Shown here one piece after another: positions 5,651 to 36,011 of a stretch of DNA of 64,000 nucleotides. The stretch is from the IMG/VR virus record IMGVR_UViG_3300044619_001509; one strand, given 5' to 3'. The notes under the pieces are model-generated. The model searched no databases. It saw only the letters and a program-made list of their open reading frames with translations, and was not told the DNA's origin. The stretch's first letter is position 1. Each line of letters opens with the position of its first letter. The DNA is from an uncultured virus (IMG/VR IMGVR_UViG_3300044619_001509) (lineage: Duplodnaviria > Heunggongvirae > Uroviricota > Caudoviricetes). The position numbers were made by a program, and so were the translations under genes.

Positions 5651-8600
5651 ATGGGTTATAACCACCCCGATATTCTAAAATCAAGTCCATACTACGACGA
5701 TTTTGAAAACACAAAGAATTTTCTTCGTATTTTATTCAAGCCTGGTGTTGCAACCCAAACCAGAGAATTGATTCAATTACAGACTCTCCTTCAGAATCAA
5801 ATTGCAAAATTAGGAAGTCACATCTTTAAGGATGGAAGTCAAGTATTTGGTGGTGGTATCACTCTCAATGAAGCCAATTACATCAAAACGGTGGTTACTC
5901 TTCCTTCTGGAACGACTACAGATAGTTTAAAAGGTAAAATTCTTGTTCAAGGTACAAATTCTTCAAATAGCGTAAGAGCAAGAATTGTTGACATTTTACC
6001 TAGTGTTTCTGCTGATCCATTTACTATTTTTGTTGTTCAATATTTGACAGGAAATGAATTCCAGAGTACATCTTCTCTTACTATTACGGTAGAAGGACAA
6101 CTCGGAGTTAATGTTTTATTTACTGGGGCAGCAGACAGAAAAGGTACATGTCAAACTCTATCCGTTGAATCTGGTATTTTTTATGTTGATGGATTCTTCG
6201 TAAATAGCAACCCACAAACAACAACTCTTGTTCGTTATGATAATGGTGTTCGTAGATTTACAGATGCAATCTTAACATCAGAAGGAGTAACCAACCGAGT
6301 AGGTTTCGAAATTGAAAGAACGGTGGTAACTTCGGTTGATGATGAAACCTTAAACGATCCTGCCCGTGGATTTTACAATTATTCCGCTCCTGGCGCAGAT
6401 CGTTATGTAATTAATTTAAATCTTATTGCTCAAGAATTTGATCCTGCTTCTGTAGAACCAGGCGAATTTGTAACTCCAGATTTTGTCGAATTGGCGAGAG
6501 TTGTAAAAGGTGTTCTTGATTATGTAAAGAAAGTACCAACCTATTCTGAATTGGTAGATACTCTTGCAAGAAGAACATATGACGAATCTGGAAATTATAC
6601 AGTAACTCCATTTGAATTGGAAGTCAAGAACCATTATAGAGATGATGAATATTTTCTTTATGTTAAAGTAAATACACCTTCTACTATAAATTCTGTCTTT
6701 GAAGGTGATTTTATTGTCAATAATATAAATGGATTGGCTACAAAAATAGGATTGATTACTTCCGTAGAAACCTATTCACCAACAACAGCGGAGTTGACTT
6801 CTGGTGGAACAAATGATCTTCCTACTCATGTAATACGAGTAAAAAGAGAAAAAGTAAATGGAACATATAATTATGTTTTCTTTACTAGTTCCGATACTGC
6901 AATTCACAGAAGCAGAAGTTTAGTAGATACTACATTGGGTGCAATTAAGAGAATCACGGTAAGTCGTGATCCTAATGGTGTATATTCTCCAGAAGAAGGT
7001 GGAACAGACGATAAATTTGTATTGTCTGTAAAGCCTGGTAAAGCATATGTTTTTGGTTATGAATTTGAAACCATCAATAATACAAATATCGTTGTGGATA
7101 AAGAAAGAAATGATTCTGTCTATACGGTAAATGATTATAATTTGGGTGCAAATATTGGAAATTACTTCTTGGTTAAAGCAAATCTTGCAAATGGTAAATA
7201 TGCATTTAATCGTTGGGATACTTCTATCAATCTAGAAGAAATGCCATACATGAAGTTTGGTGGGAAATATGTTCGCATAACAATTCCAACACAAGCAGAA
7301 GATACAAGAGATCATGCGCTAAAGTATTGGTCTCCAGTTGCAAAAGATCAAACAACATCGTTTAGAAGTGTTGCTTTTGTTACGGAAGAATCCGCACTCT
7401 CTACAGAAAGTATTGCGGCACACACAAATCCCGCAAACCCATCATACTTAAATCTTATTGATTTTTCTGGTGAAGGCGCAACAAATGACGATCTTTATGG
7501 TGATGGATATATTCGTCCACAGAACACATCAAGAACTCAATCTAAGTCCATTGGTGGTGCGTCATCCTTGACTGCATATCCTATGGTAAATATGAGTAAT
7601 GATATTGAAACTAATATTTCAAGATTAGCATTTTCAGAACCTTGGCATGGAAATTTTGATACTTCATACAATTCTACTTCAGAATCGAATGGAGCATTAT
7701 CGACTTATTCTGGAACATTCCCCGTTAAGCAAATTAAGTGTCTCGATACTGCAAATCCATCTTCGATTCAAGTAACAACAGGACACGCTTTGCGTTGGGT
7801 TCCTGCTTCAAATAGTGGTGCATATTCTACTTCTGGAAGTACACTTTTTGTCAAATTAATTAACACAACAGATTACACTGGTGGTACAAATCTCGAAACA
7901 GCAAGATTTAATGTTGAAGATGGTGTAATCTTTGCAGATCCTACAACATCAACAAATCCAATTTCATACGGTTCAAGTATCGCGTATATTTTAAGAGATA
8001 CGAGTATCAAGAGAATTATTGTTCGTTCTGCTCAGGATTTGGGTTGTGTAAACGATAGTGCTTGTACGGACGCAGGACAGGGTGGTTTCTATTCTGTTGG
8101 TGATATCGTAACACAAAATTACGATAAGAATGGAATTGAAATTCAAGCAACAGGTGAAATTATTGCAATCGGTGGAGATTTCACAACACCAAACACTAAC
8201 ATCGAATTGTACATTCAAACATCTGGAACAAATTACATCTATGGTGTAAATGATACCGTAGAAATGTCAGTTCAAGGTATTACGAATCTCGGATGCTTGA
8301 TTGGGCCATGCGGACTTTACAAACCAAGATCAAGTATAACATTAAATAATCCTGGCTGCGGTGAGTGTGTGAGAATTGGTTTCCGTGATTCTGAAAATGT
8401 CGGTGCATATACTGTAAACGAAATTGCATTCCAGTACAACTATCTTGCTCTTCAAGAAGTCTCTGGAGTACCACAATACCTTGATTCAAACTTGGTAAAG
8501 GGTCGTATTGTTGGTTGGGATGACACATCTAAAGAATTGATTGTTCTTGAAACACAAGGACGATTTGAAATTGCAAATGGTACAATATACGAATTGAAAT

Positions 8601-11600
8601 CATCTACAGGACAAGCAGTAAAATATGGTGGACGCGGTTGGGATAAATTTAAGACTAAGTTCCAAAAGAACACAGGTGCAACTCAACCCCAATACGATAT
8701 TGAAAAAGTAAGTGGTATCTTCATTGATATTGCAAGTACCCCAAATAAAAATTTTATTGAAACTTCTTATTCTGTGTTCGATGCAGCGATTGCGTCTGGT
8801 ACTGGTGAAACCATTACTCAGATTGCGGTTCCGTTTGTTGGAAATTACTTTGAAGGTAAAGATTTTGTTGTTGGAGAAGAAGTTAACCAAACAATATCAA
8901 CATCATCAATTGCAAGAGGAACTGTTCTTTCTTGGACACACCGAGATTTAACAAATCCATCAGATAGAGCAGATACAATTATCATTATCAAACCAATTAA
9001 TACGGTAGAGTTTGTTGTTGGTTCATCTGCAATTAATAACCCTCTTGTGAGTTTCGCAAACCCTGCGGTAAGTTATGATTTGTCTGGTGTGGGAACAACA
9101 AGAACAAAAGAAATTCTTGGTGCAGGAAGAATTCGTCTTCTACGCAGACAAGAAGAAGATGCATATCAGGCATATTTCTTTGATATAAAAATGGATTTCT
9201 TACCCGACAGATCTCGCAAATACAACTTGAATGAAGTGTTTAATTTCTATTATGAAGATGGATTTAAGAATGCAATTTTAAGCGAATTTGAGGACGAAGA
9301 TATTCAATTAGAAATTTCGGAAAATAATTTTGTATTTGAAGTTCATCCTACACTTGGTATCGAAAGTACAGATTACAGTAAGGTATTCGATACCGATAGA
9401 AATTCGTTGTTGTTTAGACTTGCTGGTAGCGAATCCGTAAAGAATGTTGGAGAATTGGATTATCGTATTCAAAGACAATATAATTTATCTGGACCTTTTG
9501 GAACAGATACTTTGTCTTTCTCAACAGATAGTCCTTATGTACGATTTATCGGTGGTGAATCTTCAACAACTGGTTTGGTAGATTCGAATGATTTGATCGA
9601 ACACTATAGTTTAATTTTAACTTTTAATACAGGATTACAATACATTGAATCCTTGTCAAATGGAAACTATACAGTAACAACCAACAATTATTCATCTCCA
9701 ACTAGCATTGCTACATTGTCGATTAAGAGAAAGAGCGGAGTCGCTTGGAGTGACTTGACAAAAGTTTCTTTGATTGCAAATTTAAATGTAAATCCAAGTG
9801 GAAATACATCCCTAATTCGCACAAAGACAGTAGAAAGATTTACAGAAACAGTAACTTTAAAGAAAACAAAGTCTGGTGTTTGGAAAGCAACTCTGTCCCG
9901 AGCAGATATTTTAACAATTGACAAGATTACTGCAATATCATCCAATACAAATGTAAAAGAACAATTTGATCTATATGATGGTCAAACAGATAATCTTTAC
10001 GATTTGGGACAAATTACACTCAAGTCACAATACTTGGTAAATAATGTACCAAATTTTGCAAATTATCAGGTGATTGTATCGTACCGCTATTTCTATCATG
10101 AAAACAGTGGACCATTTACAAAGAACTCATACGAAAATATTGACTATACAGATATTCCTTCGTATACGAGTTCGTTGAATGGTCAATATTACAAATTGGA
10201 TTCTGTAATCGATCTTCGTCCATTGAAGACAACAGATGGATCTATTGTATCTGGATCCAAGTGGATTCCCGCTCCTGCAAATTCATTTAATGTAGATTAT
10301 GAATACTACTTGCCAAGAGCATACAAATTGGCAATTACAAGAGATTTGAATTTTAAACTTATCAGCGGTATTCCCGCGTTCACACCAGAATTACCTTCTG
10401 ATGATGAAAACGCAATGACAATTTACAATATTACAACCTCTCCATATATCTTTGATAAAACGGATGTCGTTGCAAATATGGTAAATAATCGTCGCTATAC
10501 GATGAAAGATATCATTGCATTGGATGATCGTATACAAGCACTGGAACAATTTACATTATTGAATTCTTTGGAAAGAGAAGCAGAAAACAAGTCTATCATA
10601 GACGAAGCAAGTTCTCTCCCAAGAGTCATCAGTTCGATTCTTGTAGATAATTTCAGTACGCATGGTAAGGGTGATACGCTAAACAAAGAATACAATGTAA
10701 GTATTGACTCTGAAAATAACCTGATTCGTCCATCATTTGAAATGGGAACAGTTGATCTAGTAGATTCAACGAGTGCAAACACAACAAGCAATGTGATAAA
10801 AACACCAGATAATGTTGTAATGCTATCTTATGATGCGGTTCCATTAATTTCACAATTGTCAGCAAGTGGAACAGAAAAGATCAATGCATTTAATGATAAC
10901 TCATGGATTGGTTCTATTGCTCTCACACCAAGCACAGATTCTTGGTTTGATGAAACCATCAAACCAGATGTTCGTGTAAATGAAAACAATGCTAACAATG
11001 CAATCAGTGATGTATTCCCTGCTCCAAATAGCAGAAACAACAATGGTATGGGATCTGATTGGGGATTCTGGAAGAGAAAGTGGTTTGGTAATAAACCAGA
11101 AGCAAAGAAAAATACAAATCCAGATCGCAGACCTTGGTGGTTAAAGCAAAGAAAGATCGTACCCGATACTAAGATTGCAGCAGCAACGACATCAAGTAAT
11201 GTCGTAAATGTTGGTGAAAATAAGATCGTAGACAAGTCGGTTGTTCCATACATCCGTGAAAAAACAATAACAGCAGTAGTCGAAGGGTTAAAACCATTTA
11301 CTGTCGTATATGTGTTCTTTGACGATGTAAACATTACCTCACAATGTCAAATCTTAAACAGTGTGGGACAAGTTGTAAGTGGAACGGGATTGAGAACAGA
11401 CTCAAGAGGATCGCTACAATTCAGTTACACTATCGAAAAAGGTAAGTTTAAGACAGGTGAAAAATTACTTGTTGTTACAAACTCACCCACAAACAATGCT
11501 CAATCTGCAACAACAGTAGCAGAAGCGGTATATGTTGCTTCTGGTGCAATTCAGATTGCTACAAATACGGGAATTTCAACAAGAAAGTTAATTAAAAAAC

Positions 11601-12874
11601 CAGCATCTTACACAAAAAATATCAGCGATCCATTGGCACAAACATTCTTTGTGGATGAAGCGCAGTATCCAGAAGGTGTCTTTGTAACGAGTGTTGATAT
11701 TTTCTTCGCCACAAAGGATTCAAATCTTCCCGTGACGCTAGAATTGCGTCCTACGGATAGCGGATATCCTTTGACTAGAAACAGAACAACAATCTATCCA
11801 TTCTCTTCTCTAACAAAATATCCTTCACAAATAACCGTATCCGATGATCCAAACTTAGATAAGGATATGATCAAAACTACCTTTACCTTCTCGACTCCTG
11901 TACATTTACTGCCAGGAGAACACGCAATCGTTTTGAGAAGTAATAGTTCTGACTATTCGATCTATGTTGCTGAAGTGGGCCAGTTGCTAGTAAATAGCGA
12001 ATCTAGAATTACTCAGCAAGCAGCAGTCGGTTCATTCTTCAAGACGCAAAATGCAGGAAAGTGGCAGAATTACGAAAACATCGATATGATGTTTGCAATC
12101 AATCGTTGTGAATTCAATACCACACAAGGTTACATTACATTTACAGATACTCCTGGCGTATTGGCATCAGAAAACCCATACGAAACATATACGGTAAACA
12201 ATGACGAAGTAAAATTCAACAATACTTCGATCAAGTATCGTGTAAGAAACACAGTTGCTACGGATTCGGTAATTCAACCAAACTCGGTATTGATTACTCC
12301 AAATACTAACATAGATTTGAATGCTTCTCATAAGATAACAAATACTGGTTTGAGTTTTGAATTGGAAGTAGAACTAAACAGCGATAGTACAGTAGTTTCT
12401 CCGTTGTTTGATATTGATAGACTCAGAGTTGCTACAGTACACAATGTATTGGACAACAATTCGGATATTAATGTTCAATCCGAACAATACAATGGAGAAT
12501 TGGAACCAAAATCGGATGTTCTTCGTGCAAGATACATAACGAAAATTGTGGAATTGGAATCTGGATTTGAATCATCAAATATCAAAGCGACATTTAATGT
12601 AAATATTCCTGCGGACACAAAGGTGCAAGTATTCATCAAGCACCAATCTGCGGGTGCAGATAATCCATTCGATGACGAAAGATATACTCTTCTTGTGCCA
12701 AATAAATCAAATTATGTGTCACCAGATGTGGATAGTTTCACGGACATTGAATATACTCTTCCTCAAGATTTGGATCAACCTTTCTGTAAGTTTGCTATCA
12801 AGATTTGTTTATATTCAAGTAATCCTGCAAGAGTACCAAAAGTAAAAGAAATGCGAGTGGTAAGTGTCATCTGA
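5651..12874 (+). CDS. Very large virion structural protein, VrlC/DUF4815-like
   Basis: PYYDDF...LF.PG...Q.RELIQLQT, APGADRY, LARRTYDESGNY, RRYTMKDI, DPLAQTF; usual position after gp8. Confidence 0.8.
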   Translation: MGYNHPDILKSSPYYDDFENTKNFLRILFKPGVATQTRELIQLQTLLQNQIAKLGSHIFKDGSQVFGGGITLNEANYIKTVVTLPSGTTTDSLKGKILVQGTNSSNSVRARIVDILPSVSADPFTIFVVQYLTGNEFQSTSSLTITVEGQLGVNVLFTGAADRKGTCQTLSVESGIFYVDGFFVNSNPQTTTLVRYDNGVRRFTDAILTSEGVTNRVGFEIERTVVTSVDDETLNDPARGFYNYSAPGADRYVINLNLIAQEFDPASVEPGEFVTPDFVELARVVKGVLDYVKKVPTYSELVDTLARRTYDESGNYTVTPFELEVKNHYRDDEYFLYVKVNTPSTINSVFEGDFIVNNINGLATKIGLITSVETYSPTTAELTSGGTNDLPTHVIRVKREKVNGTYNYVFFTSSDTAIHRSRSLVDTTLGAIKRITVSRDPNGVYSPEEGGTDDKFVLSVKPGKAYVFGYEFETINNTNIVVDKERNDSVYTVNDYNLGANIGNYFLVKANLANGKYAFNRWDTSINLEEMPYMKFGGKYVRITIPTQAEDTRDHALKYWSPVAKDQTTSFRSVAFVTEESALSTESIAAHTNPANPSYLNLIDFSGEGATNDDLYGDGYIRPQNTSRTQSKSIGGASSLTAYPMVNMSNDIETNISRLAFSEPWHGNFDTSYNSTSESNGALSTYSGTFPVKQIKCLDTANPSSIQVTTGHALRWVPASNSGAYSTSGSTLFVKLINTTDYTGGTNLETARFNVEDGVIFADPTTSTNPISYGSSIAYILRDTSIKRIIVRSAQDLGCVNDSACTDAGQGGFYSVGDIVTQNYDKNGIEIQATGEIIAIGGDFTTPNTNIELYIQTSGTNYIYGVNDTVEMSVQGITNLGCLIGPCGLYKPRSSITLNNPGCGECVRIGFRDSENVGAYTVNEIAFQYNYLALQEVSGVPQYLDSNLVKGRIVGWDDTSKELIVLETQGRFEIANGTIYELKSSTGQAVKYGGRGWDKFKTKFQKNTGATQPQYDIEKVSGIFIDIASTPNKNFIETSYSVFDAAIASGTGETITQIAVPFVGNYFEGKDFVVGEEVNQTISTSSIARGTVLSWTHRDLTNPSDRADTIIIIKPINTVEFVVGSSAINNPLVSFANPAVSYDLSGVGTTRTKEILGAGRIRLLRRQEEDAYQAYFFDIKMDFLPDRSRKYNLNEVFNFYYEDGFKNAILSEFEDEDIQLEISENNFVFEVHPTLGIESTDYSKVFDTDRNSLLFRLAGSESVKNVGELDYRIQRQYNLSGPFGTDTLSFSTDSPYVRFIGGESSTTGLVDSNDLIEHYSLILTFNTGLQYIESLSNGNYTVTTNNYSSPTSIATLSIKRKSGVAWSDLTKVSLIANLNVNPSGNTSLIRTKTVERFTETVTLKKTKSGVWKATLSRADILTIDKITAISSNTNVKEQFDLYDGQTDNLYDLGQITLKSQYLVNNVPNFANYQVIVSYRYFYHENSGPFTKNSYENIDYTDIPSYTSSLNGQYYKLDSVIDLRPLKTTDGSIVSGSKWIPAPANSFNVDYEYYLPRAYKLAITRDLNFKLISGIPAFTPELPSDDENAMTIYNITTSPYIFDKTDVVANMVNNRRYTMKDIIALDDRIQALEQFTLLNSLEREAENKSIIDEASSLPRVISSILVDNFSTHGKGDTLNKEYNVSIDSENNLIRPSFEMGTVDLVDSTSANTTSNVIKTPDNVVMLSYDAVPLISQLSASGTEKINAFNDNSWIGSIALTPSTDSWFDETIKPDVRVNENNANNAISDVFPAPNSRNNNGMGSDWGFWKRKWFGNKPEAKKNTNPDRRPWWLKQRKIVPDTKIAAATTSSNVVNVGENKIVDKSVVPYIREKTITAVVEGLKPFTVVYVFFDDVNITSQCQILNSVGQVVSGTGLRTDSRGSLQFSYTIEKGKFKTGEKLLVVTNSPTNNAQSATTVAEAVYVASGAIQIATNTGISTRKLIKKPASYTKNISDPLAQTFFVDEAQYPEGVFVTSVDIFFATKDSNLPVTLELRPTDSGYPLTRNRTTIYPFSSLTKYPSQITVSDDPNLDKDMIKTTFTFSTPVHLLPGEHAIVLRSNSSDYSIYVAEVGQLLVNSESRITQQAAVGSFFKTQNAGKWQNYENIDMMFAINRCEFNTTQGYITFTDTPGVLASENPYETYTVNNDEVKFNNTSIKYRVRNTVATDSVIQPNSVLITPNTNIDLNASHKITNTGLSFELEVELNSDSTVVSPLFDIDRLRVATVHNVLDNNSDINVQSEQYNGELEPKSDVLRARYITKIVELESGFESSNIKATFNVNIPADTKVQVFIKHQSAGADNPFDDERYTLLVPNKSNYVSPDVDSFTDIEYTLPQDLDQPFCKFAIKICLYSSNPARVPKVKEMRVVSVI

Positions 12875-13085: not shown

Positions 13086-16000
13086 ATGCCCAATACAAAT
13101 GATATTGATCTTCAAAAGTTAACACTTGATAGTACATTTTATGATTGGTATCTTCGTACCAATCAGATCATTGATTATATCAATCCGATCAATGTCTATG
13201 ATGTATTTGCTGGCAGTGGTCTTCAAGAATCCCGAACAGGTACGCCAGGAACTGTACAAATAAGTTTGGGTACAAATCCTGCAAATTATGGTATTGATAC
13301 TCTTACAGATAGTAATGGAGATTCTATTACTATTTTGAATATTGCTGGTTTAACATCAAGTACAGTATCGAACACAAGCACATTTGCATTTGGTGGTACG
13401 ACTTCAAAATCTGTTTTAAGAAAAGTGGCAGCATCGGATATGCTTCCACCAACAATTAACGGTAATCATTTATTTACAGGAACAATTACTGTCGGTGATT
13501 TGATTGTACGAGATGGTACAATTATTCTTAATGATACAGGTTCTACGAGAGACAATGTAGGACTTGTAATAGAATCGACAGCAGATACCGCAGCAAATAA
13601 TGTGTCTTTCTTGTTCGATACAGATACAAATGCATGGTATTCTAACAGAAATCTAGGAATGACTTCTGGAAGAAGATTTGTTACGAATGCTATAGGTTCG
13701 GCAACATATCCATTTTATGCGTCCAATTCTCAAGCTATTGTAGACATTCAATTACAAACTAATGTTGGTGCTACTCTTGAAGCATGGTCGATAAGAGGTG
13801 CTTGGGGCTCTCCCGATACTCTTATTTTTGGACATTATACCAATGGTGTAAAGGTTGCAGATGTTTTAGAATTAAGATCTGGTGGTACAAATACAGATAC
13901 TAGAGTTATTGTAAAAGATGCATTAACTATTACCGATATTTTAAATTCCTCTCCGTTTAGTGCAACTCCTGCGGTTACGAGTGTACCTATCACAGATTCC
14001 ACCAATGGTTATTTAAGTACATTTGTTAATCGAATTAAAGCATCAACAGCACTAACAGGAAGTGATATTGGTCGCATTGTCAGACTAGATGGTAGCGGTA
14101 ACGCAATTAGTGCTGTTGCAAGTTCTGAAGCAAATTCACAAACAATTGGTATTTTGGAATCTGTTTCTGGTGGCGTAGCAACAGTAATTACTTCTGGTAT
14201 TTGTCCAATTAGACCAAGAGATAACACTGGTACTCAAATATCAATGACCGCTGGTACGGTATATTATTTACATCAATCAATAGCAGGAGCAGTACAGGCT
14301 ACAAAACCATCTTCTGGGTTCGTAAAACCAGTATTGATTGCAACATCTTCAACACAGTGTGTGTATGTTCCTGATTTTTATTATGCAGCAGGAACATCCG
14401 CGTTTACTGCCGTTCAAGTTGTAGATACGGGTGAAACATATACAGCATCCGCAGCAGGAACTACCTTGCGCTTAGACGGTGGAAATTCAATTGCTTTAGA
14501 TTACACGACAAACGGCACAATTGTATTCAATTATACAGGAACGCAATTACCAAGCGTTGGGAATAGTTCATTTTATATTAAAAACAGTGTAGGTACTAAT
14601 ACAGGATTTGCTCCAAGCACCTATAGTTTAGTTGGACAACCACTAAATTCTGGTATTGCTGATATTCCTGTAGCGCCAGGAACATTAGTTGGTAGACGCG
14701 ACGATACGGATGATAGTAACAATCCAGTAGAAGCACTTTTACCAAGTCAAGTTCGCAGTATTCTTGGATTTAGTGGCAATCGTTACATTAAATCCATTCT
14801 GTTTGAAGAATCTGCAAGTACAGATATTATTAATTTTGATGCTATAAATTCAGAATCGGTAAAGGTTCGTGCTGGATTTGGTATTGATTTTACTTATGAT
14901 TCCGTGGAAAAAGCAGTAGTAATTACAAACACAGGCGGTGGGGGTGGTGGTACAGGTGGACCAAGTACATTAGACATCACTGCTACTGGTGGTGGTTCTG
15001 CAAGCGATATTGGTGCTATTCGTTTCTTGAATTCTGATGCAAGAAACTTTATTGATTTTACAGTAGAAGAAAACACTTCGGGTACAGCATCTATAGTAGC
15101 AAGACCAAAAAATACATTTTTAACATTAGCATCTGTGTCAAGTATAAATCATGATGCTGGTGACATATTAAGAATAATTGGAACTACTGGAGTAAATGTT
15201 GCGCTTGCATCTTTAGGATCAACAAATACATTTACATTATCGTTATCGTCTACTATAACACCAAATACAGTAAGATCGACAACAAATACACTTGAATTAG
15301 ATACAAATTCACTAAGAACTCTTTCATTTAGAGTCAAGGATTCTGCTACGAGTGGTCCTGCTTATTTCAGTACCGATACAAATTACATTACCACACTTGA
15401 GACATTTGATAATATCACTCAGGGAACAAGAGTTGATAGCACACTCTACAATTTTACTGGTAGTAATCCCGTATCAAGAGAAAAATGTGTATCTATGTTT
15501 GCTGATATGACTATTGGTCCTGATACAGTAAGTTTCCCATTCAGATTCTATAAAATCATTGCAGATAAAATTAAAGTTACGGATCTTGAGGTAACAGGAA
15601 CAGCAATTAAGAATTTTACAGAAATTAATAATTTGTCTGGTGAAAGTTATGCCATAACATCATATAATTTAAACAGAATTCGTTTACCATCAGCATTAGA
15701 TGGTATTTTGCTTGATTTTGAAACGACAACTGGTTCCAGTAATCGTGCGTTCATAATGAAACCCGAACCAAATACATTTGGTTCAGGAACATCAAAATCT
15801 TTCTTTATATCAGAAAAAATATTCTTTGCAGATCAAACTTTAAATCAATTTAGTCCATCTATAGGTTTAGATAGTGCTGGTTCCATATTAGTACAATCAA
15901 ATTCTGCTCAATCTAAATTCAGAATGGTGGATTCTGCAAACAGAGAATGTTCGGTTGGTGTTCAAACTGGTTATGCATTCTTAACATATGATCCAGATTC

Positions 16001-16265
16001 TACTGGTCCAAATTCTGCAATTTCTTTGAGAGTAACTTCGGATACACTACTAAACAATGCAGATTCATTCATGGTTGGTATTGTAGGAACAGAAGGTTGG
16101 AAGATAAATACTGTTGCATACGCAACGGGGGATATTGGTAAAGCAATGAGAATTGCAAGCGTTACTGATGGTGTTGCAACTATAGAGGCAAGAGATTATA
16201 TCAAACCATATGTTGTAGGAACTACCTCTGGTGATCTGATTAATACTTTATATTATGTGGTATAA
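13086..16265 (+). CDS. Putative tail fibre/virion structural protein
   Basis: 1059 aa, T/S/G-rich beta-type composition, N-terminal DSTFYDWYLRTN anchor-like motif, poly-Gly linker; within the tail region. Confidence 0.6.
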   Translation: MPNTNDIDLQKLTLDSTFYDWYLRTNQIIDYINPINVYDVFAGSGLQESRTGTPGTVQISLGTNPANYGIDTLTDSNGDSITILNIAGLTSSTVSNTSTFAFGGTTSKSVLRKVAASDMLPPTINGNHLFTGTITVGDLIVRDGTIILNDTGSTRDNVGLVIESTADTAANNVSFLFDTDTNAWYSNRNLGMTSGRRFVTNAIGSATYPFYASNSQAIVDIQLQTNVGATLEAWSIRGAWGSPDTLIFGHYTNGVKVADVLELRSGGTNTDTRVIVKDALTITDILNSSPFSATPAVTSVPITDSTNGYLSTFVNRIKASTALTGSDIGRIVRLDGSGNAISAVASSEANSQTIGILESVSGGVATVITSGICPIRPRDNTGTQISMTAGTVYYLHQSIAGAVQATKPSSGFVKPVLIATSSTQCVYVPDFYYAAGTSAFTAVQVVDTGETYTASAAGTTLRLDGGNSIALDYTTNGTIVFNYTGTQLPSVGNSSFYIKNSVGTNTGFAPSTYSLVGQPLNSGIADIPVAPGTLVGRRDDTDDSNNPVEALLPSQVRSILGFSGNRYIKSILFEESASTDIINFDAINSESVKVRAGFGIDFTYDSVEKAVVITNTGGGGGGTGGPSTLDITATGGGSASDIGAIRFLNSDARNFIDFTVEENTSGTASIVARPKNTFLTLASVSSINHDAGDILRIIGTTGVNVALASLGSTNTFTLSLSSTITPNTVRSTTNTLELDTNSLRTLSFRVKDSATSGPAYFSTDTNYITTLETFDNITQGTRVDSTLYNFTGSNPVSREKCVSMFADMTIGPDTVSFPFRFYKIIADKIKVTDLEVTGTAIKNFTEINNLSGESYAITSYNLNRIRLPSALDGILLDFETTTGSSNRAFIMKPEPNTFGSGTSKSFFISEKIFFADQTLNQFSPSIGLDSAGSILVQSNSAQSKFRMVDSANRECSVGVQTGYAFLTYDPDSTGPNSAISLRVTSDTLLNNADSFMVGIVGTEGWKINTVAYATGDIGKAMRIASVTDGVATIEARDYIKPYVVGTTSGDLINTLYYVV

Positions 16266-24421: not shown

Positions 24422-26371
24422 ATGGCATTTCAAGTAAGCCCTGGCGTACAAATACGAGAATTTGATCTTACAGCAATTGTTCCTGCTGTAGCAACAACCC
24501 CTGCTGGTTATGTTGGAGTATTCCAATGGGGCCCAGCAGATCAAAGAGTCCTTGTCTCAACCGAAAAAGAATTAGAAAGTATTTTCTTTTCACCTCTTAA
24601 CAATCCTTACTATGCAACTTCGTGGTTAATGGCATCCAACTTTTTGGCATACGGTGGAAATCTTCAAGTAGTTCGTTATGTTAATTCTGTAACAGCAACA
24701 GTTGGATCAAGTACAAACTTTACGAGAAACAGTGGTCAATTTGATTTGAACGCAGTTTCTTTGATCGCAGGACCTGGTACAAAAGAAACACTAACTTCTG
24801 GTGATACAATTGTTACCATTAAGAATCGCGAACATTACGAATCTATAACAATCAATGGTGTAACGACTCCATTCGAAAACGCATTTCTTGCAAGATATCC
24901 AAGTAGATTGGGTAATAATTTGGCAGTTGTTGTTTTGATGCCTACCGATTCTGCAAATCCTTGGGCAACAGAATTCGCAGGCGCTCAAGCAGCAGCAACA
25001 GGAACAATTGGAAATAATTTCACAGCAGCAACTCTTGCTTCTGCGGTGTTCAATTCCATAAGAGCATTCCCAAACACAACACAACAAGCAGCAACTCTTG
25101 GATTCAGTAGAGACGAAATTCATATTGCTGTTATTGACATTAACGGTTCATTCTCTGGTGTTGCTGGTGAAATATTGGAATTGTACGAAGGTCTATCGGT
25201 TGCTTCCGATGCAACAAACGCAGACGGTACTACGAATTATTGGCAAAATGTCATCAATAACAGATCGCAATACATCTATGCTGGTGATATTGGAAGTCAA
25301 ATTCGCTTCAAGTCAACAGGATTGGCATGGGGTTCTGCTTTTGCAACTTCTGCTCCTGGCGGATTCCGTATTGGTTATACAGATAGAACAACACAAACCA
25401 ACGAAACATTTGCTACATTCTACTTTGACGGTGGAACAAATGCAACATTTACTACAAATGCAGTGGCATATTCAAATATAAATGTAACTCTGTCTGCTAA
25501 TATTTTAGCAGAATATCAAGACATGTTTGGTGATCCAGATGAGTCTGATGTTTCGTTGTTGATTGGTTATAACACAACAAGCACAACCGATACGAGCAGT
25601 CTAATTGCAATTGCAGAAAACAGAAAAGATGCAATTTGCTTTGTGTCTACTTGCTACGATCTTGGTAATGTTGGTGGATCTAGAACAACAATTAAGAATG
25701 CAATTACAGCTTTTGCAGATCTTTTAGGTTCAACATCTTACGGTGCTTTGGATTCTGGTTACAAGTACCAATACGATAGATTCAATAATGTTTATCGTTA
25801 TGTTCCACTTTGTGCCGATAGTGCGGGGTGTGCGGTAAGAACAGACAACCAAAAGGATCCTTGGTTCTCGCCAGCAGGATATGATCGCGGTAGAATTTTG
25901 AATGTTGTGAAGTTAGTGTTCAACCCAAATCAAGCAGAACGCGACGAACTTTACAAGAAAAATGTAAATCCTGTAATTACATCTCAAGGATTTGGTGTAA
26001 TTCTGTTCGGTGATAAGACTCTACAGAAGAAACCAAGTGCATTTGATCGTATCAATGTTCGTAGATTGTTTAATGTTCTTGAGAAGTCAATTGCGACTGC
26101 TGCCAAGTTCCAACTCTTCGAATTCAACGATGCGTTCACTCGTTCGCAATTCAAGCAACTTGTTGAACCATTCTTGCGCGATGTTCAAGGAAGAAGAGGA
26201 ATTACTTCTTACGCAGTTGTATGTGACGAAAGTAACAATACACCATCAATTATTGATGCAAACAGATTTGTTGCTGATATTTTCGTTGCACCAAACCGTT
26301 CGATCAACTTCATTCAACTTAACTTCGTGGCAACTCCAACTGGAGTATCTTTCGCGGAATATGGTGGATAA
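24422..26371 (+). CDS. gp18: Tail sheath protein
   Basis: SPGVQIREFDLT, FQWGP, PWFSPAG..RG, AFDRINVRRLF, FEFNDAFTR, RSINFIQLNFVA. Confidence 0.96.
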   Translation: MAFQVSPGVQIREFDLTAIVPAVATTPAGYVGVFQWGPADQRVLVSTEKELESIFFSPLNNPYYATSWLMASNFLAYGGNLQVVRYVNSVTATVGSSTNFTRNSGQFDLNAVSLIAGPGTKETLTSGDTIVTIKNREHYESITINGVTTPFENAFLARYPSRLGNNLAVVVLMPTDSANPWATEFAGAQAAATGTIGNNFTAATLASAVFNSIRAFPNTTQQAATLGFSRDEIHIAVIDINGSFSGVAGEILELYEGLSVASDATNADGTTNYWQNVINNRSQYIYAGDIGSQIRFKSTGLAWGSAFATSAPGGFRIGYTDRTTQTNETFATFYFDGGTNATFTTNAVAYSNINVTLSANILAEYQDMFGDPDESDVSLLIGYNTTSTTDTSSLIAIAENRKDAICFVSTCYDLGNVGGSRTTIKNAITAFADLLGSTSYGALDSGYKYQYDRFNNVYRYVPLCADSAGCAVRTDNQKDPWFSPAGYDRGRILNVVKLVFNPNQAERDELYKKNVNPVITSQGFGVILFGDKTLQKKPSAFDRINVRRLFNVLEKSIATAAKFQLFEFNDAFTRSQFKQLVEPFLRDVQGRRGITSYAVVCDESNNTPSIIDANRFVADIFVAPNRSINFIQLNFVATPTGVSFAEYGG

Positions 26372-26403: not shown

Positions 26404-26421
26404 AAGTAAATAGGAGACATA

Positions 26422-27177
26422 ATGGCAGACTCAAGCATTAATTCATTTATGACAAACTTTGACGGTGGTGCAAGACCAAATCTTTACACCTTCGTCTTAG
26501 CATGTCCTGGTCTAGCAGTATTAAATCCACAATTTGCACAACTTCAGTTTTTCTGCCGCAGTACACAGCTTCCTGCTTCTGTACTTGGAGAAATTACTGT
26601 ACCGTATTTGGGAAGACAAGGTAAGTATCCTGGCGATAGAACCTTTGAAGATTTTACGATTACCGTAATCAACACTCAAGATATGAATCTTCGTAGAGTG
26701 TTTGAATTCTGGCACGAAAACTTCAACACATACGCAGGAAACTCAACTTCGTATCCCAATCCAAGACAAATATTTGGTACTGCGGTTGTGACACAACTCA
26801 ATAAGGCATACCAACCAGTTCGTGCATATCAGTTGTTTGATATGTTCCCAAGAGATGTATCATCTGTTGATTTGGCATATGATAACAACGATACTGTTTC
26901 TGAATTCTCAGTAACTTTCGGATATTCATACTTTGTTACTGACAATTCTCCTGCAAACAGTGCCGCTGGAGTTGGTGGTCAAGGATTACTCAATCCTGGC
27001 GCATATGTTCCTGGTCTTGCTGGTTCTGGAAATGGATTCGGTTTTGGAAACAACGGATTTGGTGGTGGACAAGGATTTGGAGTATCGTTCGGTTCTGGAC
27101 CTAGTGGATCGGGATTCTCGTTTGGATATGGTAATGGTAATTCTGGATTTGGTTTTGGTTACGGTAAGAGTAATTAA
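26422..27177 (+). CDS. gp19: Tail tube protein with Gly/Phe-rich C-terminal extension
   Basis: GGARPNLY, FFCRSTQLP, PGDRTFEDFTITV, FPRDVSSVDL.YD, EFSVTFGY; about 75 extra C-terminal residues. Confidence 0.92.
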   Translation: MADSSINSFMTNFDGGARPNLYTFVLACPGLAVLNPQFAQLQFFCRSTQLPASVLGEITVPYLGRQGKYPGDRTFEDFTITVINTQDMNLRRVFEFWHENFNTYAGNSTSYPNPRQIFGTAVVTQLNKAYQPVRAYQLFDMFPRDVSSVDLAYDNNDTVSEFSVTFGYSYFVTDNSPANSAAGVGGQGLLNPGAYVPGLAGSGNGFGFGNNGFGGGQGFGVSFGSGPSGSGFSFGYGNGNSGFGFGYGKSN

Positions 27178-27193
27178 AACATATAATGTGACA

Positions 27194-27201
27194 CCTACAT
27201 A
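27194..27201 (+). promoter_or_regulatory. Putative late promoter variant CCTACATA upstream of gp20
   Basis: Shares the TA(A/C)ATA core found before other late genes. Confidence 0.4.
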
Positions 27202-27231
27202 TTCAAGTAGTATTTTACTTGGAGATTTATA

Positions 27232-28869
27232 ATGTCAATACCCTTCTTTGGAGCTCTATTTGGAAGCAGTAAAAAGCGTTCCACAGATTTCCTAAACATT
27301 CCAGTAACCCCTGAAGCAGACTTTGAGGACGGCGCAACAATCTTAGAGAGTGGCGCTGGAGCTCAAGGTTATGCTGTTGATATGGATACAAATCTTAGAT
27401 CTGATATTGATCTTATTCGTAAGTATAGAGAAATAAGTGGACATGCAGAAATTGAAATTGCTATTGATGATATTGTCAACGAAGCTATTTCAGAAGACAT
27501 CAAAGGTACAATTGTAAAATTAGATCTTGATAACATTGATATTTTATCTGCTGCAACCAAAAAGAAAATAGCACAAGAATTTAATGATATTTTGTATCTT
27601 ATAGGATTTAATAAAAAAGGATATGAACTTTTTCGTCAATGGTACATAGATGGAAGAATGTATCATTATTGCAATATAGATGAAAAAGATCCAAAAGCAG
27701 GAATTAAAAGCATTATTCCGATTGATCCTCTCAAGATCAAAAAGATCATAGAAATTAAAAAGAAAACCGATCAGGTTACAAAAGTACAAACAATCGAAGA
27801 AGTAAAAGAATATTATATTTACTCAAACTACGATAAATTCATTGCTCCTGGCCCAAACACACCAGTAATTACATACGGAAATCTCACAGGCATTCGATTG
27901 ACTTCGGATTCTGTGAGTTATGTGCATTCTGGATTACTTGAAAGAAACAGCAAGAGAATCTATGGTTACTTACACAAAGCAATCAAACCACTCAATCAGT
28001 TAAGAATGATTGAAGATGCTGTTGTAATCTATCGTATTTCCCGCGCACCCGAAAGAAGAATTTTTTATATCGATGTTGGTTCTTTACCAAAACAAAAAGC
28101 AGAACAGTATCTTCGTGAAATTATGAATCGTTACCGTAATAAGGTAACATACGATGCTGCAACAGGTGAAGTTCGTGACGATAGACGCATGATGCATATG
28201 TTGGAAGATTACTGGTTGCCTCGCCGTGAAGGTGGAAAGGGTACATCAATTGAAACTCTTCCTGGCGGACAAAACCTTGGTGAAATGGAAGATGTCAAAT
28301 ACTTCCAAAAGAAACTATATCAATCACTAAACATACCTCTTTCTCGTATGGAAGCAGACAATGGTTTCAATATGGGAAGGGCATCAGAAATCAGCAGAGA
28401 CGAATTGAAGTTTACGAAGTTTATCGATAAGTTGAGAAGAAAGTTTGCTGAGTTGTTCTTAAATCTTCTTCGTGTTCAATTGCTTGCAAAAGGAATATTG
28501 AATCAAGAAGATTGGGAAAAGGTATCTCAGGATATTCGTTTCAACTTCTCAAGTGATTCTTATTTTGCAGAATCTAAGAACATTGAAATGATGAAAGAAA
28601 GATTGTCGATTCTTCGTGATATTGGAGACTTCTCTGGTAAGTTCTTCTCCGAAGAATATGTTCGTAGGACCATATTACAAATGACACAACAAGAATCGGA
28701 TGCAATGCAAGAACAAATAGAAAAAGAAAGAATTCGCCAGCAAAGATTGGCAATGCAATTGGGTTCAGAAAATATTGCTACCGCAGAAGGTGGAAATCCG
28801 CCAGCAGTAGATGCGCCATTACCACAGCAAAATCAAGGTGGAGGAATGAATGTCAGCAGCTTACTATGA
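27232..28869 (+). CDS. gp20: Portal protein
   Basis: WYIDGR, YLHKAIKPLNQLRMIED..VIYRISRAPERRIFYIDVG, EDYWLPRREGGKGT, RDELKF. Confidence 0.97.
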   Translation: MSIPFFGALFGSSKKRSTDFLNIPVTPEADFEDGATILESGAGAQGYAVDMDTNLRSDIDLIRKYREISGHAEIEIAIDDIVNEAISEDIKGTIVKLDLDNIDILSAATKKKIAQEFNDILYLIGFNKKGYELFRQWYIDGRMYHYCNIDEKDPKAGIKSIIPIDPLKIKKIIEIKKKTDQVTKVQTIEEVKEYYIYSNYDKFIAPGPNTPVITYGNLTGIRLTSDSVSYVHSGLLERNSKRIYGYLHKAIKPLNQLRMIEDAVVIYRISRAPERRIFYIDVGSLPKQKAEQYLREIMNRYRNKVTYDAATGEVRDDRRMMHMLEDYWLPRREGGKGTSIETLPGGQNLGEMEDVKYFQKKLYQSLNIPLSRMEADNGFNMGRASEISRDELKFTKFIDKLRRKFAELFLNLLRVQLLAKGILNQEDWEKVSQDIRFNFSSDSYFAESKNIEMMKERLSILRDIGDFSGKFFSEEYVRRTILQMTQQESDAMQEQIEKERIRQQRLAMQLGSENIATAEGGNPPAVDAPLPQQNQGGGMNVSSLL

Positions 28870-29413
28870 TGTAAATGCCGAACAAGGTTCAACCTTTAGG
28901 ATGAAACTAACGGTTGCCGATAAGAACGGAAAAGCTTTAAATCTTAAGGGAAACCAAGATGGATATGTTCCTATTGGAGAATTGCCCGAAGGATTCGAAG
29001 ATAGATTTTTAGTCACGGATTCGCAAGGTGTAACAAGTAGTATCGCTAAGGTATTTCTTCGTATGCAAGTGCGCGATAGCGTCGATGGTAGTGTTGTTCC
29101 TATTTCTCAACCACCCGAAATTGCAAATCAAACAAATAGCGATGAGTTAACACTTTTTGGTGTATCTGGGTTTGGTTCTAATGTATTTCCAATCGATATA
29201 GAACTTGGTGATGGGGGAACAACTCAGGAAGAACCAAATGCAATTATTACAATTGATGCCATCTACATGGAAAATATTCCATATGGTAAACCATTGTATG
29301 ATATAGAAGTTGTCTATGCCCAAGATACAATTTCACACCCAAATAAAGTTGTCTATAGATTAGTTCAAGGTAGATTCATAATTTCTCCAAACATTACGAG
29401 ATTTGCAAACTAA
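28850..29413 (+). CDS. Hypothetical beta-sandwich (baseplate/fibre adapter-like) protein
   Basis: YDVNAEQGSTF...RMQVR...YDIEV...RLVQGRFIISPNIT pattern typical of small phage structural adapters; GGAGG RBS. Confidence 0.6.
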   Translation: MSAAYYDVNAEQGSTFRMKLTVADKNGKALNLKGNQDGYVPIGELPEGFEDRFLVTDSQGVTSSIAKVFLRMQVRDSVDGSVVPISQPPEIANQTNSDELTLFGVSGFGSNVFPIDIELGDGGTTQEEPNAIITIDAIYMENIPYGKPLYDIEVVYAQDTISHPNKVVYRLVQGRFIISPNITRFAN

Positions 29414-31872
29414 TGAATTTTGTTGTAGCAATCAAAACCGAACCAAATAGACTTGTGAGAGAAATATCTCGCAACGATATTGTAGTTTTGATGTCAAAGA
29501 ACGAACAAGTTGCAAACAAAGATATAATTCATAGAGATAAAGCATATCTTAAAAAATTAGAAGGTGTTTGCTTTGAGTGTTCTAAATTAAATGCACAACC
29601 ACCACAAGATGTTTGTGAACCACCAGAACCAGATAATCCCACTCCTCATGGTTGTCAGGATTACAATAATCCTTGTTTATGTTTTAATTGCCCAGAACCA
29701 CCAACGGGAAACTGCATAACAGGTTATCCATTACGAAATACTCCAGATCTAGGTTCTGGTTATTGGATTGGTTTAAACGCAAATGCTTTCTATAGCAATC
29801 CTGTCGGTGGTGGATGGTTGGTTGCTGTTAGTTGTGCGAGTGGTGATATCGTTGGTGCATTTCCCGTAACAAATAATAATTTTGGTTATGGGAGGGGAAC
29901 TATTTTAACAGAACCAGTGATGGTATATCCCGCAGGCGCGGTTAATGGTGCAGGAATACAACCACAAAATAGAACAACATTTCCTGTTCTTGGGTTAATT
30001 CCTTCAGACGGAAATGCAATAATTGCTCAGGGATCTTTTAATATATTAACAACAAATACTCCAGTAGGAATACCATCATCAAATCCTCCGTATTTTTGTT
30101 TATCAACAGATAGTTTTGTTGTTAATATGCCACCTCCGAGTCCGTGCATACGAAAATACGGAACTTCGGAATGTCCTGATTTTAAATTTTTCCCAGTACA
30201 AGGAACCGCACCAGAATATCAAGAAGAAAATTATTTGTTGAATATTAAAAATGTTCCAAATTTTCCAACAGAACTTACTGGTAAAACTGTTGTAGTATTC
30301 GAAAATAATTTGGGAACATATTCGTCTGTTGTTGATTTTACAAGATCCGCATCTGATGCATTGAGTGGAACTTGTGGTGGGGATCAATGGCCAGATGATG
30401 CTGTTGGTGGTTGTACTTCTTGTGAAAATTGCAATCCCGCTGTTCCCTGCCAATATCTTGCAAATTTAACAAATGGTAATTTTAATGTTAATTATTATGG
30501 TTATAACGCAGCAGCAAATGGTATCGAATCATTTGTAGCTATTGGTCCTTCAAATCCTCCAAGTAAAAATGACGCAGGAGATCTGTCGAATACAACATTC
30601 TGGGAAGATTGGTGGGGTTGGGATGAAACCCAATCTTATGTTAATAATATTGTTTTCTCATTTGGTGATGGAAGTCCCACACCTTTTGTAATACCACCAA
30701 TAAAAACATTAAATGATGAATGCTCTTGTGGATTGCAACTATCATCCATACAAACAATACATTATATTGATCAGTTCCCTGTTTGTTGCACAGCAGGTGG
30801 TATTCAAGGCGGACCGACTACAACTATATTAACAAGTCGTGTTTCAAGTGCAACATGTGCTTCTGAATGTTCTATTTGTGTAAGTACCGCCTGTATATCT
30901 GGAATTGAAAGAGCTGGACCAAACGGCCCCGAAAAGGTTCCAGTAGAAGGAAAATCAGGAAAATATTCATATACTCCTTGTTATATTTGCAACGGTGATC
31001 CAGAACCAATATTGAGAGACACATCTGGTTTGTGGTATTTGTCAGAAGCACAAAGTGGAAATATAGCATATTTGCAAAATAATGGCACAATACCACCACC
31101 AAATCCACTCAATCAATCCTGTGAAAATGTTTTATTTGCTTTTTCTTCTGGTGCGGCTTGTTCGAATCCATGCACAACAATAATGTACGATGAAAATGGT
31201 TTAGGTTTATATGCAATTGATGAAACCGCATTGATGAATTGTGCAGGAATTCTTAAATCGGGAATTGATAGTGATTGCTTTAAAGCAAAATTTTTACCAC
31301 AAATATATCAAAACAATCAATTAAGACTAAAAACTCCAGATAATGTTATTAATAATACTGACTTTTATATTTCGAATGAATTGGTTGCAAATATAGAAAT
31401 TTTAATAGATGGTACATGGGAAAACCTAAAAACAGAATTATATGGACCCGATACATCAAGTAATTACTGGTATAAGAATAATTTTGGTCCGTTGGGGCCA
31501 ATGAAAAATAATTCTGGTAAATGTGCGGATCCTTTCCTTTCTGCATTTGAAAATTGTGCTGTGCCTTTTACAGATATAATTCCAGTTATTTTAAATCCTG
31601 AATGTGGACCAAATGGAGTATATGGGTGGATAGAAACAAGTGGAATAGCAAGAATGAGAAACGAATTATGTAAAGAATGCGTAAATGGTCAATTGGTTCC
31701 TTCTTTAAACACTACAGATCCGTGTTCTTGTTGTTTTCAGAGTGTAAATCAAATTAGTGGAAATTTGGGATGTTCTGGTGGAAATTGTCCACCCGCATGT
31801 GAGGGGTTAGATTGTGTTACGGGAGTAGCACCGCCAGGGGTAATAATAACAAGTGCCACAGGATCCTGCTAA
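29413..31872 (+). CDS. Cys/Pro/Gly/Asn-rich hypothetical protein
   Basis: 819-aa ORF with about 45 Cys; coupled to the previous gene (TAATG). Confidence 0.6.
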   Translation: MNFVVAIKTEPNRLVREISRNDIVVLMSKNEQVANKDIIHRDKAYLKKLEGVCFECSKLNAQPPQDVCEPPEPDNPTPHGCQDYNNPCLCFNCPEPPTGNCITGYPLRNTPDLGSGYWIGLNANAFYSNPVGGGWLVAVSCASGDIVGAFPVTNNNFGYGRGTILTEPVMVYPAGAVNGAGIQPQNRTTFPVLGLIPSDGNAIIAQGSFNILTTNTPVGIPSSNPPYFCLSTDSFVVNMPPPSPCIRKYGTSECPDFKFFPVQGTAPEYQEENYLLNIKNVPNFPTELTGKTVVVFENNLGTYSSVVDFTRSASDALSGTCGGDQWPDDAVGGCTSCENCNPAVPCQYLANLTNGNFNVNYYGYNAAANGIESFVAIGPSNPPSKNDAGDLSNTTFWEDWWGWDETQSYVNNIVFSFGDGSPTPFVIPPIKTLNDECSCGLQLSSIQTIHYIDQFPVCCTAGGIQGGPTTTILTSRVSSATCASECSICVSTACISGIERAGPNGPEKVPVEGKSGKYSYTPCYICNGDPEPILRDTSGLWYLSEAQSGNIAYLQNNGTIPPPNPLNQSCENVLFAFSSGAACSNPCTTIMYDENGLGLYAIDETALMNCAGILKSGIDSDCFKAKFLPQIYQNNQLRLKTPDNVINNTDFYISNELVANIEILIDGTWENLKTELYGPDTSSNYWYKNNFGPLGPMKNNSGKCADPFLSAFENCAVPFTDIIPVILNPECGPNGVYGWIETSGIARMRNELCKECVNGQLVPSLNTTDPCSCCFQSVNQISGNLGCSGGNCPPACEGLDCVTGVAPPGVIITSATGSC

Positions 31873-35453: not shown

Positions 35454-35471
35454 TTGTATAAGGAGAAAACA

Positions 35472-36011
35472 ATGTCTCAATTTGTAACAGGTTTTAATCG
35501 CGCTCCGCAAACAATAGACTTAGCACATACCAATAAGTTCAGACTGACAATACACAAGTATCCCTATGTGGAATATTTTTGTCAAAAAGCGAATATCCCT
35601 GGCCTTGATATTCCAGAATATATTCAACCAAGTCATTTTACAGCAATTGTAAGACCCGCAACCACAATTAATTACGAAAAACTAGAAGTTAGTTTTTTGG
35701 TTACAGAAGACTTGCAGAATTGGTTGCAGTTGCATGATTGGATGACAAAGATTGTTCCAACCAGATCATTCCGTGAAGTAATTCAACCAGAAAAAGATAT
35801 TTACTCTGATATCACTTTAACCATTTTAAGCAACAAATCTCAAAGAGTAATGGAAGTAAATTACAAACAATGTTGGCCAAAATCCCTGAGTGGAATTGTT
35901 TATGATGCTACCACACTTGACACAGCAAATCCTGTGGCAACGGTAGTATTTTCTCATGCGGGTGCAACTGTCACTCACAAATCTACAAATAAAGAAAGTC
36001 CTGTAGCTTGA
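35472..36011 (+). CDS. gp3: Tail tube terminator/completion protein
   Basis: NKFRL.I.KYP.VEYFCQ.ANIPG, FLVTEDLQNW...HDWM, WPKSLSGI.YD; ATG after AAGGAG. Confidence 0.85.
   Translation: MSQFVTGFNRAPQTIDLAHTNKFRLTIHKYPYVEYFCQKANIPGLDIPEYIQPSHFTAIVRPATTINYEKLEVSFLVTEDLQNWLQLHDWMTKIVPTRSFREVIQPEKDIYSDITLTILSNKSQRVMEVNYKQCWPKSLSGIVYDATTLDTANPVATVVFSHAGATVTHKSTNKESPVA

Follow-up and report, generated by a model that had tools for sequence, protein, structure and literature searches.

A conserved, nearly uncharged glycine- and aromatic-rich C-terminal module on the predicted tail-tube protein of uncultured T4-like myophages

Few molecular machines are understood as well as contractile tails, and in all those solved, as far as we know, the tube fits closely inside the sheath. 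An uncultured virus of the class Caudoviricetes (IMG/VR record IMGVR_UViG_3300044619_001509) raises the question of why a tube protein should carry a long additional polypeptide where such tails seem to leave no room for it. We analyzed 64,000 nucleotides of this virus (hereafter the window), in which an initial annotation, made from the letters alone, had pointed out a Gly/Phe-rich tail of about 75 residues on a gp19 tube protein. Our analysis revealed a C-terminal module of 68-99 residues, almost uncharged and made of Gly, Phe/Tyr, Ser and Asn, that is kept throughout a clade of related tube proteins and that may lie at the interface between tube and sheath.

The gene carrying the module and its immediate surroundings are as follows.

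26422..27177, + strand: tail-tube protein coding sequence of the gp19 type, complete, 251 residues plus stop codon (open reading frame (ORF) call, phrog_45, PF06841, T4 gp19 profile match, Foldseek).
26422..26937, + strand: tube-fold core, residues 1-172 (AlphaFold2 predicted local distance difference test (pLDDT), alignment to T4 gp19).
24422..26371, + strand: tail sheath gene of the gp18 type, directly upstream (PF17482 2.5e-15, PF04984, phrog_23 1.1e-112).
27232..28869, + strand: portal gene of the gp20 type, directly downstream (PF07230 4.8e-169).

The 251-residue protein matched the PHROG family phrog_45, annotated 'tail tube', at 2e-47. PF06841 (T4 gp19) scored the single sequence at 26.5 bits, just below the curated cut-off of 28.2, and the precomputed family labels of the protein's cluster are PF06841/PF23849. 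A profile of 49 relatives searched against the PDB found T4 gp19 with an E value of 2.7e-28, pairing profile positions 12-168 with residues 9-162 of the 163-residue T4 chain, so that the end of T4 gp19 corresponds to about residue 169-172 here, i.e., the end of the core. The AlphaFold2 core (pLDDT 70-86 over most of residues 20-175) agrees with the tube fold, a beta sandwich with a flanking helix and a long hairpin; Foldseek retrieved the T4 tube as its best match (5w5f_A, E 8e-11), followed by 9ev2_T1 and 5iv5, although identity to T4 gp19 is only ~27%. The gene order gp18-gp19-gp20 is that of a T4-type late module, and 70 of 80 related loci have a sheath-sized ORF immediately upstream, most of the other 10 beginning too near a contig end to show one. 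Taken together, sequence and model comparisons identify 26422..27177 as the gene of a gp19-type major tail-tube protein. They also bear out the statement of the initial annotation that T4 gp19, with 163 residues, has no such tail: the T4 protein (PDB 5W5F, 5IV5) shares the fold, the family and the gene position between sheath and portal, but stops at the last core strand, whereas the present protein continues for 79 residues.

The span noted initially, 26950..27174, corresponds to residues 177-251 (75 residues) and consists, as described, of a Gly/Phe string that leads up to a terminal KSN. If the border is set after the last core strand (FGYSYFV, residues 166-172), the extension comprises 79 residues (7.3 kDa), including 28 Gly, 9 Phe and 3 Tyr, or 35% Gly and 15% Phe/Tyr. 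D174 and K249 are its only charged residues, and no charge occurs in residues 175-248. The resulting run of 74 residues free of D, E, K, R and H stands apart within the window: the next longest in all + strand frames of at least 150 residues is 34, and the chance expectation of a 74-residue run is 2.7e-05 in 20,335 residues, 24.2% of which are of these types. In stop-to-stop frames of at least 60 residues on both strands, only one other 30-residue segment, at 14925-15014, has as many as 11 Gly. The extension can be divided into the following parts.

26938..27033, + strand: proximal extension, residues 173-204, with the motifs DNSP (174-177), NPG (191-193) and PGLAG (conserved positions).
27034..27165, + strand: distal Gly/aromatic part, residues 205-248, with short G-phi-G-phi-G units and no charge (Gly autocorrelation, conserved positions).
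27112..27175, + strand: terminal tandem duplication of a 33-nucleotide (11-residue) unit covering the last two phi-G-phi-G strands (Tandem Repeats Finder period 33, 1.9 copies, 78% matches).

The 44 distal residues include 20 Gly (45%) and 11 Phe/Tyr, and their arrangement is periodic. Gly autocorrelation is positive at lag 2 (z +2.8) and negative at lags 1 (z -3.9) and 3 (z -1.9), and aromatic residues likewise recur at lag 2 (z +2.2). This period of two fits two-faced beta strands that would present Gly on one face and Phe/Tyr on the other. The module thus consists of a proximal linker (DNSP, NPG), a variable Gly-rich middle, and short two-faced strands ending in a duplicated hairpin unit, which is the best-kept element of the tail.

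We also considered whether the reading frame permits other products at this site. No slippery heptamer was seen by eye near the border between core and tail, and a programmed frameshift giving a tail-less form is unsupported. The -1 frame stops soon after the core, whereas the +1 frame is open through the tail; the overlapping +1-frame ORF (26933..27232) was rejected as a by-product of repetitive codons, since selection acts in the gp19 frame.

The extension is not an assembly artefact, because contigs from independent runs and studies, as well as relatives, carry it. Three contigs, from runs belonging to three different metagenome studies, cross the region without gaps: one (X5) spans 26409-27300 with 0 differences, one (X8) spans 26885-27158, and a 28.6-kb contig (X11) spans all 1001 bases of the stretch compared with 14 substitutions, two of them within the tail and, by our reading, one Val to Ile and one synonymous. 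The refuting outcome foreseen initially, a tail absent from reads and relatives, is thus not what we found. A 156-nucleotide metatranscriptome contig also matches 27023-27178 without differences; DNA carry-over is possible, and we do not count this contig as expression.

The initial annotation had called for a survey of gp19 homologues, and that survey traced the extension through a clade. We examined the 120 best homologue clusters returned by a word-indexed search, whose candidates share words with the query, so that the following counts are not prevalence figures. A Gly-rich tail of 68-99 residues follows the core in 66 of these 120 listed clusters, while 52 have only 3-31 residues after the core; the other two are a fragment and a protein with an odd tail (P0063). 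The tail of P0063, 77 residues long, charged and not Gly-rich, looks frameshifted, either by a sequencing frameshift or as a real variant. A separate scan of IMG/VR kept 80 related loci. All 52 with at least 49% identity have the long form (49 complete at 235-263 residues, three cut by a contig end), while 22 of the remaining 28 are complete genes with 177-197 residues. The tube proteins of cultured relatives are short and end without the extension in the two annotations read (Melnitz, 174 residues; S-BM3, 198 residues), and no Gly/Phe tail occurs among the cultured-phage relatives examined (T4, Melnitz and S-BM3). In a tblastn search of 50,697 phage records, none of the 2410 matching records covered at least 80% of the query, a result that is by itself no proof of absence from cultured phages because low-complexity sequence was masked.

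To place the tail on a phylogeny, we used a tree of the core only (115 rows; quick IQ-TREE run, midpoint root), from which P0063, P0065, P0066, P0067 and P0093 had been dropped as fragments or oddities. The 63 tail-bearing proteins form one side of a branch with a Shimodaira-Hasegawa-like approximate likelihood ratio test value of 99, and tail presence requires one change on the tree, a number reached in none of 500 shuffles. By this tree, the tail was gained once in a clade and kept. The nearest tail-less rows, P0068 and P0070, end in ~15 residues with GPG or NPGG, which may preserve a rudiment of the proximal tail part.

Searching with the tail alone yielded little beyond this clade. A phmmer search of 1.84 billion representatives gave 17 hits, of which only P0002 and P0134, both from the same clade, are real. 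Four of the 15 others (P0133, P0135, P0136 and P0145) were read, as was P0146. All five are actinobacterial helical-repeat proteins that reach E values down to 6e-18 through summed repeats, and we judged them to owe their scores to chance resemblance of their repeat unit to NPGAYVPGLAGS in the proximal tail. As far as the result table shows, the other long hits with several matching stretches are of the same kind. In the ESM Atlas, the best look-alikes of the tail, short hypothetical proteins of viruses, scored 0.76-0.78, too low to count as leads.

Having traced the tail through the clade, we asked how it is constrained. Nei-Gojobori estimates were made for 45 pairs drawn from the window and nine close loci (from L004-L016); many of the pairs are saturated, with synonymous divergence (dS) above 1. 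The ratio of nonsynonymous to synonymous divergence (omega) was 0.007-0.083 for the core and 0.05-0.37 for the tail, or 0.05-0.18 for the tail in pairs with dS below ~0.6. Judged by these ratios, purifying selection clearly acts on the tail, at a strength two to four times below that on the core. Conservation is also tied to positions. Among 49 sequences of 50-86% identity, at least 90% share S176, P192, G193, G209, F243 and G244. Across 30 close relatives, mean per-column identity is 0.69 for the tail and 0.86 for the core, and DNSP, NPG, PGLAG-x-GNGFGFG and GSGFS-x-GY-x-NG stand out as tail blocks with values of 0.9 or more. The terminal phi-G-phi-[GS] lies within the last 14 residues in 61 of 65 tail-bearing proteins. 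Such position-specific conservation, together with the period of two, argues for more than a brush defined by composition.

We next compared the module with known systems in which similar elements occur. The tube proteins of siphophages (80alpha gp53, SPP1 gp17.1, lambda gpV and T5 pb6) resemble the present protein in having an additional C-terminal element outside the tube (PMC9022992, excerpt). Siphophages differ in having no sheath, and thus room outside the tube, and their C-terminal elements are folded domains or short arms rather than an uncharged Gly/Phe low-complexity stretch. No immunoglobulin-like or FN3 decoration domain was recognizable here: a Pfam scan gave no family match in the tail, its pLDDT stays below 50, and the models contain no domain in this region.

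In composition, the module resembles the cohesive FG domains of nucleoporins and aromatic-rich kinked low-complexity segments: all carry Phe-Gly in uncharged Gly/Ser/Asn spacers, in many copies on one scaffold. The 9 Phe and 3 Tyr of the tail are mostly flanked by Gly within the uncharged residues 175-248, a likeness of composition only. Nucleoporin FG domains run to hundreds of residues, whereas only ~45 residues bear the motif here, and in the phage module G-phi-G-phi-G alternates strictly at conserved positions. Nor did homology or context point to pore proteins, the tail-only phmmer search having returned only the module's own clade and the spurious actinobacterial matches.

Two further Gly-rich elements were compared. 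The linker of class A/B J-domain proteins (DnaJ/DNAJB) is likewise Gly/Phe-rich and of low complexity and makes weak intra- and intermolecular contacts (PMC12126530, excerpt), but it is internal, between the folded domains of a chaperone, whereas the present element is C-terminal on a structural protein; the Pfam scan found no J domain in the 251 residues. The fibre tips S16 gp38 and Pam3 gp24 are phage tail proteins with a Gly-rich element containing aromatic and polar residues, but they form lattices of polyglycine-II helices in receptor-binding tips (PMC9942802, excerpt). We rejected such a lattice for the tail, since Gly recurs with a period of 2 rather than 3 and makes up only 20 of the 44 distal residues. 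A polyglycine-II lattice needs three residues per turn and a very high share of Gly, for which 45% is too little. Finally, a full-text literature search covering the main articles turned up no account of a tail like this on the tube protein of a myophage.

Where on the particle the module would lie can be approached through related tubes and by volume. C-terminal extensions of tube proteins decorate the tube on the outside, and in 80alpha and SPP1 the C-terminal arm binds the next ring, related tubes having rises of 38-40 angstroms (PMC9022992, excerpt). In T4, the outer beta sheet of the tube-fold ring contacts a helix of the sheath C-terminal domain, and the lumen, ~40 angstroms wide, is occupied by the tape measure and the end of the DNA (PMC12929629, excerpt). 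The sheath bore of P1 is 82 angstroms, and the tube is exposed after contraction (PMC10304247, excerpt). By homology with these tubes, the C-terminus of the present protein would lie on the outer face.

At 1.21 cubic angstroms per dalton, the six 7.3-kDa tails of one ring take up ~53,000 cubic angstroms. The lumen, with a width of 40 angstroms, offers ~50,000 over a height of ~40 angstroms; given that the T4 lumen is already filled, a place inside it is all but ruled out, barring removal of the tail. On the outside of a tube with a radius of 41-48 angstroms, values based on the 82-angstrom P1 sheath bore and on the outer radius of the T4 tube, the same volume gives a layer of ~4-5 angstroms, roughly one sheet. 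Of the two locations offered by the initial annotation, the lumen thus fails on volume, while the tube-sheath interface stands in part, as it fits the external extensions of homologous tubes (PMC9022992, excerpt).

Both AlphaFold2 models draw a beta hairpin of low confidence at the duplicated unit, and the tail is not docked on its own core in the monomer. A complex prediction with three cores (residues 1-175) and the tail (residues 176-251) as partner gave a score of 0.00 and a mark of 0.32, which speaks neither for nor against binding.

Two observations on other tail proteins touch on the same question. Within the sheath C-terminal domain (~25650..26368; loci L004-L082), a few columns change from charged to uncharged in tail-bearers (Lys to Ala, Glu to Thr and Asp to Ser, for example); they are suggestive of a changed tube-sheath interface but confounded with phylogeny, and we draw no conclusion from them. 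In T4, the tube initiator gp54 (5iv5_W, 9ufn_C) continues for ~70 residues past its tube-fold strands in a moderately Gly/Ser-rich region. Its alignment to the tail is of low confidence and no evidence of homology, but the solved position of gp54 might show where such an extension can go.

Our preferred explanation, which we hold tentatively, is that the module lies at the tube-sheath interface as a non-ionic arm or coat, which becomes ordered on assembly. It would emerge from the fold on the outer side of the tube and, in the assembled tail, would lie between tube and sheath as an arm or a thin layer, ~4-5 angstroms thick if spread evenly, or fill cavities under the sheath. There it would make weak, multivalent, non-ionic contacts with neighboring tails, with the outer beta sheet of the tube and/or with the inner helix of the sheath, adding to or replacing the usual electrostatic contacts between tube and sheath, which template the extended sheath, hold it and release it on contraction. 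After contraction, the module would coat the exposed tube. The sequence data establish the identity of the protein, the reality of its tail and its presence throughout the clade, selection on the tail, its single gain and its period of two; where the module lies, whether it is ordered, what it contacts and what it does are inferred.

Several points weigh against this explanation. The tail is presumed to be retained in the particle, the protein being known from its gene. That the C-terminus lies outside is carried over from other tube proteins and not from a gp19 structure. In two AlphaFold2 models, built from 49 and 40 sequences, the whole tail has a pLDDT of 23-42, which supports no fold, and its middle changes length between subclades (68-99 residues) and cannot be aligned confidently, as in a linker or a disordered region. 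When the last 240 residues of the sheath were compared between 43 tail-bearing and 22 tail-less loci, no indel and no obvious room made for a tail were found, which leaves only cavities already present or a slightly wider fit to accommodate it.

Some of these points would suit a tail that never takes up a fixed structure and whose ~130 or more copies instead surround the tube with a Gly/Phe layer, cohesive or entropic in nature, that spaces tube and sheath apart or lubricates them. The low pLDDT along the whole tail, its charge-free low-complexity composition, the varying length and sequence of its middle part, and its evolution at two to four times the rate of the core would all be in keeping with such a brush. 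The fixed motifs, the conserved blocks, the period-2 Gly pattern and the conserved terminal hairpin unit, by contrast, exceed what conservation of composition would produce, and omega falls to 0.05-0.18 in unsaturated pairs. We consider permanent disorder possible but doubtful.

At the other extreme of order, the G-phi-G-phi-G strands of all subunits could pair into a silk-like, two-faced beta layer around the tube, with a dry glycine/aromatic interface replacing the electrostatic contact. We regard such full order as unlikely. If true, the silk-like beta sheet would give a contractile tail a third concentric layer, and its dry interface would set the stability and release of the extended sheath independently of ionic strength, which would fit an origin in lake water.

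The module might instead act before assembly, covering polymerization surfaces of the monomer so that tubes grow only on baseplates, or recruiting a chaperone, and later be displaced and perhaps trimmed. Purifying selection on a segment with no predicted fold would suit such a role, as would the Gly/Phe-rich linkers of J-domain proteins, which mediate intra- and intermolecular contacts and autoinhibition (PMC12126530, excerpt). Against it stand the undocked tail of the AlphaFold2 monomer and the tail-less relatives, which assemble without any such element. Trimming would also need a site, and no protease site or processing signal is visible in the tail, which contains no Glu. T4-type prohead protease, moreover, acts in heads. 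On balance, a role confined to assembly control seems distinctly unlikely.

We assign a low probability to a role only after contraction, in which an uncharged hydrophobic coat would ease passage through the outer membrane and periplasm or bind a component of the host envelope. The aromatic, uncharged composition and the exposure of the tube after contraction (PMC10304247, excerpt) are consistent with this, and restriction to one clade could reflect a particular host envelope. Every subunit has the tail, yet only the distal tube enters the cell, and the AlphaFold2 models contain no membrane-active motif or amphipathic helix. A contribution at this stage is compatible with the interface arm or coat that we prefer and does not exclude it.

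A plug in the lumen or a helper of the tape measure, with tails filling the channel until ejection, might be imagined by analogy with the FG-type domains that fill the channels of nuclear pores. We consider it very improbable, given the ~53,000 cubic angstroms of tail against ~50,000 of lumen already holding tape measure and DNA end in T4 (PMC12929629, excerpt) and the external position of tube-protein C-terminal extensions (PMC9022992, excerpt). Scarcely credible, finally, is a non-functional run made by slippage, mis-assembly or read-through, to which the repetitive GGN/TTY coding and the 33-nucleotide duplication might point, since independent runs and studies, 66 listed protein clusters and 52 loci carry the tail, omega is well below 1, and the tail was by the tree gained once and then kept.

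The rest of the window agrees with a T4-type late module. It encodes baseplate wedge, gp13/14/15-like, terminase, prohead protease, scaffold and major head proteins, as well as UvsY, a UvsW-like helicase and gp55. It also holds a second tube-fold paralogue, which lacks the Gly-rich tail and which, from cyanophage gene order, we take to be probably a gp3-type tube terminator.

35454..36011, + strand: second tube-fold paralogue, 185 residues, without Gly-rich tail, after the major head protein gene (phrog_45 3.2e-29).

The window has a guanine-plus-cytosine content of ~35%. Its major head protein reaches at most 54% identity to any of the 50,697 phage records, the best matches being cyanophages and the Methylophilales phage Melnitz, and the stretch is carried mainly by lake-water and freshwater metagenomes (runs X1-X20, 16 studies). 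We read the source, from these sequence comparisons, as an uncultured freshwater T4-like myophage, although the cultured phages most closely related to it are marine cyanophages and a Methylophilales phage.

Four further ORFs, all on the + strand, were recorded. A 2407-residue ORF (5651..12874) matches only PHROGs of unknown function (phrog_358, 3.6e-287), and the 1059-residue ORF that follows it (13086..16265) has no PHROG match and contains the sole other Gly-rich patch of the window, the one at 14925-15014, a Gly run with Thr/Ser. Between portal and prohead protease lie a 187-residue ORF (28850..29413), which overlaps the portal end by 20 nucleotides and matches only phrog_1084 (unknown function), and an 819-residue ORF (29413..31872) with no PHROG match.

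Such a tail would easily be overlooked in particles. No Lys or Arg occurs between the Arg of an FPR motif just before residue 150 and K249, so that the tail falls within one tryptic peptide of ~100 residues, and virome proteomics that relies on trypsin would miss it. Our findings thus indicate that a phage clade with at least one lake-water member puts 7 kDa of uncharged Gly/Phe-rich polypeptide on every subunit of its predicted tail tube and keeps it there under selection, which is of interest to phage structural biology because the feature sits where contractile tails seem to have no room. If the tail lies at the tube-sheath interface, it would alter the very surface that templates sheath assembly and must release on contraction. 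The clade would then be a natural experiment on how the tube-sheath interface can be built, and its module a rare case of a conserved, functional, low-complexity aromatic/glycine element in a virion.

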